64,000 nt of DNA from Eledone cirrhosa. Its lineage: Eukaryota. How positions within the stretch are numbered: the stretch's first letter is position 1; every line of letters begins with the position of its first letter. Shown here one piece after another: positions 16,429 to 20,111 of the stretch. Location: contig OZ024740.1 in assembly GCA_964016885.1 (NCBI GenBank), positions 42,904,001 to 42,968,000 on the forward strand, read 5' to 3'. The position numbers and the translations under genes are program-made. The notes beneath the pieces were generated by a model that was given only the letters and a program-made list of their open reading frames with translations, made no database searches and was not told the origin of the DNA.

Positions 16429-17059
16429 GAGGTGTAGAGAACCACTAGAGTGGATAATATATAGTCTACGAAAAATGTGGAAAATATATAATAATTAAAA
16501 GGTAAATTAAAATGTACAAACCCATTTATATAAGTATAAAACACCTGGACAATCTCAAAGAAGAGAATGTTTTGCCATAAACAGTGTTGACACCATACCT
16601 TCTCAGGGCTCGTCAACAGGTGTAAAAAAGATATAGCGTGGTAGACTTTATATTCTCTACTCTAGTGGTGCACTAGCCCTCATAATTGAAACATACGCAT
16701 TTTTGTGTTTTCTTCTCCGTATACTGTATTATGAAGAGCCCGGTACTTATTCCTTGAGTTCATTAAATTACAGGGGATTAACGCAAGTCTTTAACTCCGT
16801 TTTTTACTTGATATATATATATATATATATATAGTAAGGGGCATTAGAAGAGGTAAATATTTATATTATACTAGCGGAGCTACCCGGCTTCGCTCAGTGT
16901 TAAAAAGCTTATTTAGAAAAGAATAATATTAACATTTTAATCGTTATTTAAAAACTTCTGTAATTTAGTTTCTATTTTTTAGATTTTAACATTTATCTTT
17001 AAATGACTGAATGACTGACGAATTTAAAGAAAATTCGTTATAAGAACATTTAATTTGTT

Positions 17060-18920
17060 TTACTGAAGTGCTTTTGGATACACAATGTTTTTTTGTTTTT
17101 CCTTCTGGTGCGTACACGAATAAATCAGAAGGTTTACCGACGCGTGAGAAAGCCACATACAGCTGTCCATGTGAGAAGCATGGATTTTCTAAATTTAGTC
17201 CACACACTTGTAGCGATTGTCATTGTGCTTTGTTGATAGTCATTGCAAAGGCGAGTCGCACCGGAAACTGCAAACGTTTGAAATCGAATGGCGTATCTGT
17301 TGGAATGATTGGGATGCGTGGCAAGAGTACATCTTCTCCTTTAAATTTTCCATTTAAAATTGTAGCCTCGATGATATTGTTCATCGTCTTTTTCACTGAA
17401 AGTCTGGTACCGTTGCAAAGTTGTGGTGGATTGATGTTTCGGAGAAGGATGATAGGCACGCCAATTTTCAATGTTAAAATGTGCGGTGGCATGCCTGGCA
17501 AATCAAGTGAATTCAAGAATTCAATTGGATAATTGATAATTTCATCTTGATTCATTACAGTATCGATGGACTTATACGTTATCGCTTCACCTGGTATTTC
17601 GTTTTGAATGCTGAAATTAATGGCATTGACATCGGTGTTTTTGGCTGCTAATATAGCACGTACACTGAGCCACTGATGATTTTTGTAATGCTGCGCAATA
17701 TTTGGGAACACTTTGTGAATCAGTTCGTCTCTGGTTGCCGTGATTCTACAGAAGTTTGTTGGCAATGTGATACATTTTGTGGAATCATCGATTACCATTT
17801 TCCCATTCCCAATATCCAGCAATTGTTTTGTGAAACGTTCAGCGGATGCGTCATTTTGTAGTTGTACACGCATATTGTTTTTGAAAGTTAATTTCTGTAC
17901 GTGTCGCCATAAAACTGATGATTTGAGACATGCATTAAGCTCATCAGCGGGTGTTGATCGCGGTATAACTGGTAGAGTTTGTCGAAAATCACCAGACAAT
18001 AAAATGAGAGTGACACCGAAGAGCTGTTCATTTCCTTTCAAATCTTTTAGCGTATTATTAAGCGCTTCCAATGATTTTTTGTGCGCCATAGTACATTCGT
18101 CCCATATAATGATTTTACATGATTGGAGTACTTTACCTATACCAGAATTTTTGGTAATATTGCATGTTGATGTCTCAGCGATTTGCATATTCAATGGCAA
18201 TTTCAGGGCTGAATGTGCTGTTCGGCCACCATCTAAAAGAGTTGCCGCAATTCCAGATGATGCGATTGCCAGTGCAATATTATTTTCTGATCGTATAGTT
18301 GCCAAAATAAGTGAAATGAGAAAAGTTTTGCCTGTACCACCGGGCGCATCTATAAAATACAATCCGCCGCTTTGACTTATAATTGCCTGCATAATTTGGT
18401 CATATACTATGCGTTGTTCTGGTAGCAATTTGGGAAGATTCGTTTGAACAAATGTACCCAATTCGGCGACATCAAAGTTTGTTTCTCGTTGCAAATCACG
18501 ATCGAAAATGTCGTTTACAGATCGATTCGGCGCAGGCATTCCCAATTGTACCAATGTTTTGTTAGCGATTGCTAAACATATGACCTCAATGGAAACCAAT
18601 GCTTCATTATACACATTTGGTGTGAATTGAATATTCATATTTTGATTTGTTGCACGCAAACGATGTAGGATGTCTTCACTCATGTAGTCTTTATATTTTT
18701 CCCAAAGATCTTTTGGATTTGATGGGAAGCACGTTGTCAATATTATTGAGACTAATGTGCGTATTTGCTTTGGTCGAGCAGTATTCGATGCATCAGCGAG
18801 TGAAGTGTCCCAATGTCCATCATTTTCAAGAAGATTTAATTCTTGGCAAGCTTCACGATAAGTGGCACATACTTGACCGTTTACTGTTCTCAATTCTTGG
18901 AATGATGTCGGTCCACGTAT
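17060..18920 (-). pseudogene. PIF1-family helicase of Helitron 1
   Basis: IDAPGGTGKTF, IIWDECTMAHK, GDFRQTLPV, LCNGTRL, FAMTINKAQ*QSL, HGQLYVAFSRV; premature stop at 17220 and terminal frameshift. Confidence 0.93.
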
Positions 18921-19048
18921 GTGTCCAGGTCAGGAAAATAAGGACAGACGAAATGAAGATATCAAATTACAGCACTTAGTTAAGGGCTAGCTGAAAAAGA
19001 ATTCCCTGTAATGGGAGTGGAAGGGAAGTAATGTGAAACAGACACTAT

Positions 19049-19160
19049 ACTAATTCTATTGAAATTATATTAAATTAAAGAGAGAATTTACTAATTCTAT
19101 TGAAATTATATTAAATTAAAGAGAGAATACTAATTCTATTGAAATTATCTTTAATTAAAA
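19049..19160. repeat. ~40-bp tandem repeat x3 inside Helitron 1 5' region
   Basis: actaattctattgaaattatattaaattaaagagagaat repeated. Confidence 0.9.
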
Positions 19161-19829
19161 AAATTTCACACTCGCTCTTTCACTCACTCTTTGTCTATAC
19201 GTTGATTTCTCTTTCTCCGTTTATAGCACTCTCTCTTTGTCTATACGTTGCTCTTTCACTCTCTCTTTGTCTATACGTTGATTTCTCTTTCTCCGTTTAT
19301 AACTTTAGAGACAGTCTAATATAGGGAGTGGTTCAAAGCAGCCAGACTACTCGCTCTTTCACTCTCTGTTTGAATATACGTTTATTTCTCTTTCTCCGTT
19401 TATATTTTTAGACAAACAAACAAACATACATTCATTTTTATATATATAGATTATTTAATTTATTTTGAAAAATTGGTTGAATTTTACTTGTTCTGCTTAT
19501 CTTAATATTAATGTTCTGGTATATCAAATTAATACCATTGAACAACCTTGAATCATAGACAACATATGTATTTCTAGGGGTACTTAGTATCTTTGGACAT
19601 ATTAACTTCATTCATTATACTCCGTTATGTAGAGAACAAATCTGTTGTTCTATTTAGCTGCTATTTTTTTTAGTAGTAATTATAGACAGCAAGTCTGTGG
19701 TTATTCCGCTTTTACTTCGGTCCGGTTTACATACGGGTCACTTTTACGACCTTTCAGACCTGTATTAGCTGGCAGGAGGTCATATATTTTATCGTTCCTG
19801 GGTCGTTTAGCCCTAGAAAAGGAAAATGC

Positions 19830-19907
19830 TTCTCTGATGAGCTTTGGTTTTCCATCAGATATCCATTGGATTCTGGGGTTTTACAAAGCGAAACTGATCA
19901 GTAAGGG
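19830..19907 (+). ncRNA. Type I hammerhead ribozyme, apparently intact
   Basis: ttct CTGATGA gctttg..caaagc GAAA ctgatca GTA aggg; stem III palindrome actgatcagt; predicted cleavage after 19903. Confidence 0.88.
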
Positions 19908-19992
19908 CCATTAGAAGAGGTAAATATTTATATTATATTTTTTAATTTATTTTGAAAAATTGGTTGAATTTTACTTGTTCTGCTTATCTTAA

Positions 19993-20111
19993 TATATATA
20001 TACATATATATATATATATATATATATATATATATATATATATATATATATATATATATATATATATATATATATATATATATATATATATATATATATA
20101 TATATATATAT
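19993..20111. repeat. (TA)n microsatellite
   Basis: Directly visible. Confidence 0.98.

Follow-up and report, generated by a model that had tools for sequence, protein, structure and literature searches.

A Helitron-split copy of a hammerhead repeat of Eledone cirrhosa, and its family of likely retrozymes in TA microsatellites

Anatomy of the locus

The window analysed here is a stretch of 64,000 nucleotides (64 kb) of the Eledone cirrhosa genome, in which a short hammerhead-bearing repeat is embedded in a (TA)n run. Once a Helitron (16871-19450) is taken out and 16834-16870 is rejoined to 19451 onward, the locus has the structure (TA)n-X-body-hammerhead-X-(TA)n with a period of 487 nt: the second GTAAGGG lies exactly 487 nt downstream of the first, the marker tattttgaaa is found at 19461 and 19948, and the two copies of X (16834-16870 plus 19451-19505 against 19901-19992; 92 nt) show two mismatches. 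The 5′ copy of X opens with GTA, 3 nt upstream of the predicted cut (4 nt counting a shared A). The features of the locus, in window positions, are as follows.

16811-16833, no strand: left part of the (TA)n target; both ends of the insertion run into (TA)n
16834-16870, plus strand: start of the 5′-truncated insertion, GTA and the first 34 nt past the predicted cut (first part of the 5′ X)
16871-19450, minus strand: Helitron fragment, a later insertion at an A|T site, with TC...CTAG ends, a 3′ hairpin and a PIF1 helicase ORF (17220-18929)
19451-19505, plus strand: remainder of the 5′ X, which stops at the first-turn site A (about 19505) and forms the 3′ arm of a long AU-rich hairpin
19506-19615, plus strand: 'tail' segment, from site A to site B, with two predicted hairpins
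about 19608-19616, plus strand: site B, the 3′ end in other copies
19616-19829, plus strand: non-coding body of the unit
19830-19907, plus strand: type I hammerhead motif, with the cut predicted after 19903 and a palindromic stem III at 19893-19902
19901-19992, plus strand: 3′ X, terminating at site A, the main fixed 3′ end of the family
19992-20111, no strand: right part of the (TA)n target

The Helitron is bounded by CTAG at 16871 and GA at 19450 on the minus strand, sits between an A and a T, and its PIF1 helicase ORF is recognized by Pfam (E 2e-62). A preliminary description of this DNA had proposed the same layout and period, a 5′ X starting at gta (16834) within 3-4 nt of the predicted cleavage site, and the absence of a credible ORF, all of which are borne out: on a concatemer of the unit the longest stop-to-stop frame has 93 codons and the longest from a methionine 56. 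The unit is without protein coding and low in G+C (33%, below 45%), and since it has no ORF with RT and GIY-YIG domains, it is not an autonomous Penelope-like element. As a single locus it is ordinary, namely a truncated, Helitron-split copy from a known repeat class.

The hammerhead motif and the predicted fold

The hammerhead displays a core of CUGAUGA (19834-19840) and GAA (19890-19892), a stem I of 4 bp, two of them G-U (19830-19833 with 19904-19907), a stem II (19841-19846 with 19884-19889) with a long distal hairpin, and a palindromic stem III (19893-19902), which places the predicted cut after A19903. An Rfam scan of the 64-kb window returned no match at the gathering score, and the ribozyme call accordingly rests on motif, fold and covariation. 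Among 19 aligned family members, a U-A pair of stem III is replaced by C-G in five sequences and a G-C pair of distal stem II by U-A in four; as the sequences are related, these compensatory changes amount to two events and not nine. Cells of the hammerhead stems are paired in 90.7% of cases in the same alignment, versus 30-50% in slid registers, in a count over 24 column pairs of which one (columns 30-57) is out of register. Self-cutting by the RNA of the element is thus a prediction from these sequence features. The G10.1 of stem II is an A in 7 of the 19 aligned copies, and at L273 (915-1600) the hammerhead core is altered in both units, a change either present in the template or homogenized later; these variants indicate that efficient ribozyme activity may be dispensable for amplification.

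The 487-nt circle is predicted to fold into a branched structure with 64% of its bases paired (z -3.7 against 40 shuffles). A viroid-like or HDV-like rod RNA, also considered, does not fit, as the predicted circle fold is branched and not rod-like.

A dispersed family with sister units

A 23-mer spanning the cut has 609 exact matches in the genome and its reversed control none, so the observation is not due to chance; the 3′ junction with (TA)n is matched 419 times, again with no match for the reversed control. A search of the 3.0-Gb genome with the unit produced 2429 candidates, and among the 40 scored the best copies are 92-97% identical. The family has a unit period of 485-487 nt, with copies as short as 26 nt and, at the other extreme, an array of ~9.8 kb with ~20 units; most are dispersed pieces of 0.1-2 units, located in (TA)n, with a fixed 3′ end and a variable 5′ end. 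The terminal repeat amounts to a partial tandem of variable length (26 to >9000 nt, depending on the copy) and is therefore no LTR. Given the type I hammerhead in each unit, the head-to-tail units, the absence of coding and the low G+C, these are likely to be metazoan non-LTR retrozymes, as judged from the sequence features. A plant-type LTR retrozyme was also considered and is ruled out by the type I topology and the variable repeats.

The subfamilies differ in age, with distances to the nearest copy of about 0.2% to 6%; the group of the window copy is about 3% diverged. Three contig sets from one sample contain many variants of the family. A sister unit of 483 nt, 55% identical and of the same layout, yields 2491 candidates in the genome, and another of 481 nt exists. 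The longest array (C1:382892458-382902230; L096, L176, L177) has units 0.3% apart and a site-A end in (TA)n. Three duplicated segments at C1:217.39-217.60 Mb (L136-L138) each harbor the same retrozyme insertion near a cysteine-rich frame of 562 codons. At the edge of the window (63330-64000, continuing 157 nt past it; L221) lies a head-to-head copy of the 483-nt sister, with ends at ~80 and 191.

Two fixed 3′ ends

The fixed points of the family are its 3′ ends, while the 5′ ends vary. Numbering the unit from the base after the predicted cut as position 1, the 3′ ends of 167 arms, a sample enriched for site A by the junction search, fall at 87-94 (site A) in 116, at 191-204 (site B) in 42 and elsewhere in nine, and TA follows within 12 nt of the 3′ end in 156 of the 167. 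Counted from the cut, site A is thus at ~90 nt and site B at ~192-200 nt, and each leads into (TA)n. In the young subfamily the unit sequence that follows site B is TTTTCTCC, which indicates that site B is not chosen by its likeness to the target. Both sites are predicted to lie in unpaired linkers directly 3′ of a long hairpin, in the 487-nt as well as the 483-nt unit. The segment from A to B folded alone is no stabler than its shuffles (z -0.6 and -1.5), and its hairpins therefore rest on conservation, with mostly one-sided changes.

The template: a circle or a tandem transcript

Comparison of the last unit with the previous one within an arm yields 177 differing columns in 13754 (1.3%), the preferred measure because other counts of unit differences include some alignment artefact. 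These represent 172 distinct changes, of which three are recurrent; hence, no mixed master array shows through. Recurring unit-to-unit differences at position 457 (13 loci) and position 210 (four loci) were rejected as alignment artefacts. Rare variants common to several or all units of an arm number 23 versus 125 confined to one unit, both counts being slightly inflated by alignment artefacts, and about 18 of the 23 occur in every unit of the arm. Each subfamily has homogeneous arrays of its own, and no 5′ junction is common to unrelated loci. The low number of recurrent unit differences, the arm-wide variants and the unshared 5′ junctions would fit a single-unit circular template, and we posit that the template is probably a monomer that is self-cut, re-ligated and rounded many times.

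The strongest competitor, which differs from this explanation in the template step only, is Penelope-type mobilization from an uncut linear tandem transcript with no circle, the long arrays growing additionally by local duplication. We regard it as the less likely option, though one of real weight. It accords with the behavior of PAc (Poseidon of Anolis) in vitro, for which the available text reports that uncut RNA is the main substrate and that ribozyme cleavage is not needed (PMC11167929, Frangieh et al. 2024), with the weak stem I and the G10.1A variant, and with variants found in adjacent units (2 of 3 or 3 of 20); at L025 and L176, the occurrence of variants in some neighboring units fits local duplication. 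Homogeneous uncut arrays combined with local duplication fit the same data. Against it stand the absence of the recurring polarized unit differences expected from a mixed master array, the shared rare variants that run through all units of an arm, the homogeneous arrays proper to each subfamily and the lack of 5′ junctions shared by unrelated loci, none of which is decisive. For the window copy itself, a circular monomer was likely copied for slightly over one turn; the same single copy would be expected from an uncut tandem transcript.

Head-to-head insertions pair site A with site B

In a set of 58 insertions, found through the hammerhead on the largest contig, there are 36 simple insertions ending at A, six ending at B, one other and 15 head-to-head. 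Twelve of these 15 pair an A end with a B end, none is A+A or B+B, and three have a non-standard end (two of them without a TA flank at that end); were the sites chosen independently, A+B in 12 of 12 would be expected with P about 1.5e-5. The overlapping site-A set agrees: the inverted partners of A arms, 34 in all, start at B in 25 long and five very short cases and elsewhere in four. In the sister units A+B accounts for 8/10 (483 nt) and 6/7 (481 nt), from tables read by eye. The two arms of a head-to-head insertion belong to one subfamily and are as close to each other as, or closer than, they are to nearly all other loci, and in several insertions they have rare variants in common (four at L103, two at L015). 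Such shared variants within one subfamily point to one template molecule; later conversion between arms can also cause the sharing of rare variants, and L103 looks like such a case. At 22 of 29 junctions the arms share an overlap of 1-11 nt, and the tail is about 105-110 nt long. These insertions suggest that one RNA serves both target strands as template, with priming at two sites inside it.

An older model, in which the inverted arms result from fold-back self-priming of one cDNA and the tail from endonuclease resolution (PMC3846280, PMC8557442, in the sections available), would account for the 14 of 28 A+B insertions with the A arm inside the B arm, and for L103, a symmetric palindrome whose variants match phase by phase between the arms, a pattern that fits fold-back or later conversion. 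In 13 of the 28, however, neither arm contains the other, and some arms are disjoint (L154, L179, L045, L082), which a cDNA copying itself by fold-back cannot produce; symmetry is found in only one of the 28. We therefore consider this model improbable and retain two internal starts on one RNA. In the part of the literature covered, we did not meet a near-strict pairing of A with B, established by counting, in which the arms derive from one template, a point on which subscription papers and supplements (Fig. S2 of PMC11167929, Fig. S9 of PMC7229834) may bear; nor did we meet a tail of 105-110 nt in the portion concerned with Penelope-like elements and retrozymes.

5′ ends relative to the cut

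The 5′ ends were drawn from the first 100 of the 419 listed site-A junction places, which gave 111 junctions in loci L001-L190; 13 known only from the best-match unit search were dropped, as were the duplicate L137, L143 at an N gap and the compound locus L144, and four local duplicates were collapsed, leaving 91. None of the 91 ends lies within 5 nt of the cut, versus 2.6 expected at a constant stop rate, and unit positions 476-10 contain eight, versus 5.6 expected (P 0.2). The cut is crossed once in 81 of the 91 insertions and twice in 22. Across 181 crossings, counted where the flanks are intact, only substitutions occur at the junction, and gaps around the cut number 0 in 1617 aligned cells versus 488 in 82042 overall. 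The absence of ends at the cut, the read-through and the gap-free junction indicate that the template runs through the cut uninterrupted, which is a part of the preliminary description, phrased there as the crossing of a ligation junction or tandem unit, that the family upholds.

Its other proposal, that hammerhead self-cleavage makes the template's 5′ end so that the terminal repeat starts at the cut, fails on the same counts: the histogram of 5′ ends against the cut was run and is scattered, the outcome named beforehand as refuting. What could be said for such an origin is that the window copy starts 3 nt upstream of the cut, that L004, L050 and L095 begin 5-9 nt upstream of it, and that positions 6-36 hold 19 ends versus 8.7 expected (P 0.002). 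Most of this excess falls within a TA-like patch at 18-36, where target joining by microhomology and alignment over-extension both act. The GTA retained in the window copy is upstream of the cut, and template jumps would leave an indel scar there, of which none is seen; together with the read-through in 81 of 91 insertions, this renders cleavage as the source of the 5′ ends very improbable. With 5′ ends scattered across the family, the GTA start of the window copy is one ordinary truncation among many, placed beside the cut by chance. A minority of insertions may derive from cut linear templates that were trimmed back.

The notion that the family is a satellite or minisatellite spread by recombination at the DNA level, with the hammerhead incidental, has the arrays of up to about 20 units to recommend it and is nevertheless scarcely credible given that most copies are dispersed 0.1-2-unit pieces in (TA)n with fixed 3′ and variable 5′ ends and that the ribozyme features compensatory base changes.

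A model for the insertions

We hold it very likely that the locus is a 1.2-unit, 5′-truncated copy of a hammerhead repeat, later split by a Helitron, from a family that is likely a non-LTR retrozyme, with a Penelope-like RT/GIY-YIG enzyme as the likely agent of its copying into TA microsatellites. A Penelope-like protein would nick (TA)n and start reverse transcription inside the RNA, at an unpaired linker that follows a long hairpin on its 3′ side. One target strand would be primed at site A and the other at site B (twin priming), and the two cDNA ends would anneal or join through short microhomology; a second arm that is short or missing would leave a simple copy such as the window locus. 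The template would be a circular monomer, self-cut and re-ligated, that is copied for multiple turns, or otherwise an uncut tandem transcript.

A more specific version, which we put forward tentatively and rate as somewhat less than probable, has one Penelope-type dimer on one circular ribozyme RNA priming both (TA)n strands, always from A and B, with multi-turn copying and head-to-head joining of the cDNAs. If this is true, a single step would account for the inverted repeat, the one-sided tail and the second-strand synthesis of Penelope elements as well as for retrozyme arrays, and rolling-circle retrotransposition would have left a natural record in these families.

The probable mobilizing enzyme

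GIY-YIG elements abound in the genome (10596 candidates in a search for the family, 150 of them scored), and by their motifs they may be Neptune-type. In a small sample of these candidates, 30 GIY-YIG loci and 19 longer stretches, matches to the units are limited to short stretches that are AT-rich or of low complexity. Patterns common to two sister families, and the stem III pattern with other flanks, recovered only further non-coding sisters among the 100 matches listed for each. We also found a young autonomous family (L225, L229, L301-L330) with RT and GIY-YIG domains and many identical copies, which features a minimal hammerhead motif in its 3′ non-coding part and a tail of 50-55 nt. Its copies have their 3′ ends at two points, about 122 and 171-177 nt downstream of the cut, each leading into (TA)n, and it pairs A with B in 6/6 head-to-head insertions with both ends seen, two of them paired by position only. 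Compared with the units, it shows no alignable similarity (best E 0.055). As no autonomous partner with an alignable terminal repeat was found among the elements compared, we infer the mobilizing Penelope-like protein from its footprint only, which comprises 5′ truncation, partial tandems, an inverted 5′-truncated copy, a one-end tail and a TA target. The same footprint sustains the signature of a retrozyme or non-autonomous Penelope element read earlier from the window copy.

Relation to known systems

The family resembles the metazoan non-LTR retrozymes, as presented in the parts of the papers considered here, in its tandem non-coding type I hammerhead units, its range from monomers to multimers, its low G+C and a proposed mobilization by Penelope-like elements, which is likewise a proposal in those papers (PMC7229834, Cervera and de la Pena 2020; bioRxiv 10.64898/2026.07.22.740005, Li, Clavereau and Pollet 2026). 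Its units of 481-487 nt exceed the 150-450 of the former paper and lie within the 51-972 of the latter, and its long stem II is unlike theirs. A circular RNA template has been shown for the retrozymes of coral, mussel and axolotl (PMC7229834); cleavage and circles are demonstrated for metazoan retrozymes and predicted for the present family, and of nine predicted Xenopus (frog) retrozymes only one showed cleavage in vitro (bioRxiv 10.64898/2026.07.22.740005). Fixed 3′ ends, (TA)n targets and head-to-head arms are not described in the portions of these two papers considered. With the plant LTR retrozymes, as covered in the sources at hand, the family shares the non-coding nature and the hammerhead within the terminal repeat; those have a type III ribozyme, true LTRs, a 4-bp target duplication and a Gypsy partner, in contrast to the type I ribozyme, variable repeat and TA target seen here.

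Penelope-like elements are described in the sections available as displaying partial tandems (pseudo-LTRs), inverted 5′-truncated copies, a one-end tail and microsatellite bias (PMC8557442, Craig et al. 2021; PMC3846280, Arkhipova et al. 2013). Our family is like the endonuclease-bearing members in its 5′ truncation, partial tandems, inverted truncated copy, often one-ended tail and microsatellite bias, and differs from them in being ORF-less and in its tail of about 105-110 nt versus 30-40; the A+B pairing, counted and near strict here, contrasts with those descriptions. How Penelope-like elements form tandem and inverted insertions is called still undefined in PMC8557442. In the main text on PAc, initiation in vitro is internal, at two sites, with both strands cut and extended, and the two internal start sites explain the Penelope tail (PMC11167929). 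Like PAc, this family has two internal sites downstream of the cut and an AT-rich target, and the first start of PAc, 85-92 nt past the hammerhead cut, compares with about 90 here. PAc differs in being an autonomous element and in showing in vitro no strand-dependent choice of start site, unlike the strict A+B pairing, and the main text of PMC11167929 makes no mention of a circular template. Given a short ORF-less template with two mapped starts, the near-strict pairing of A with B, and a young autonomous family of this genome that is itself a good in vitro candidate, both Penelope insertion and retrozyme mobilization become testable in the existing in vitro assay.

Other features of the window

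A separate hammerhead family, with an 8-bp stem I and a stem III of AUAUGUAU, is present in the window at about 4180-4530 and 58620-58877, and at L144 (6420-7010); its copy at 4180-4530 is a head-to-head one flanked by TA runs, one end being long and the other short, like that at L144. A degenerate hammerhead-like motif of a related kind (59465-59580) terminates in a TA run. The window further contains a second Helitron (54890-58570), with Helitron_like_N and PIF1 frames, and non-LTR retrotransposon frames encoding endonuclease and RT (298-1356, 36957-40232 and 41172-44496), the last of which is flanked by ATT/TAT repeats.
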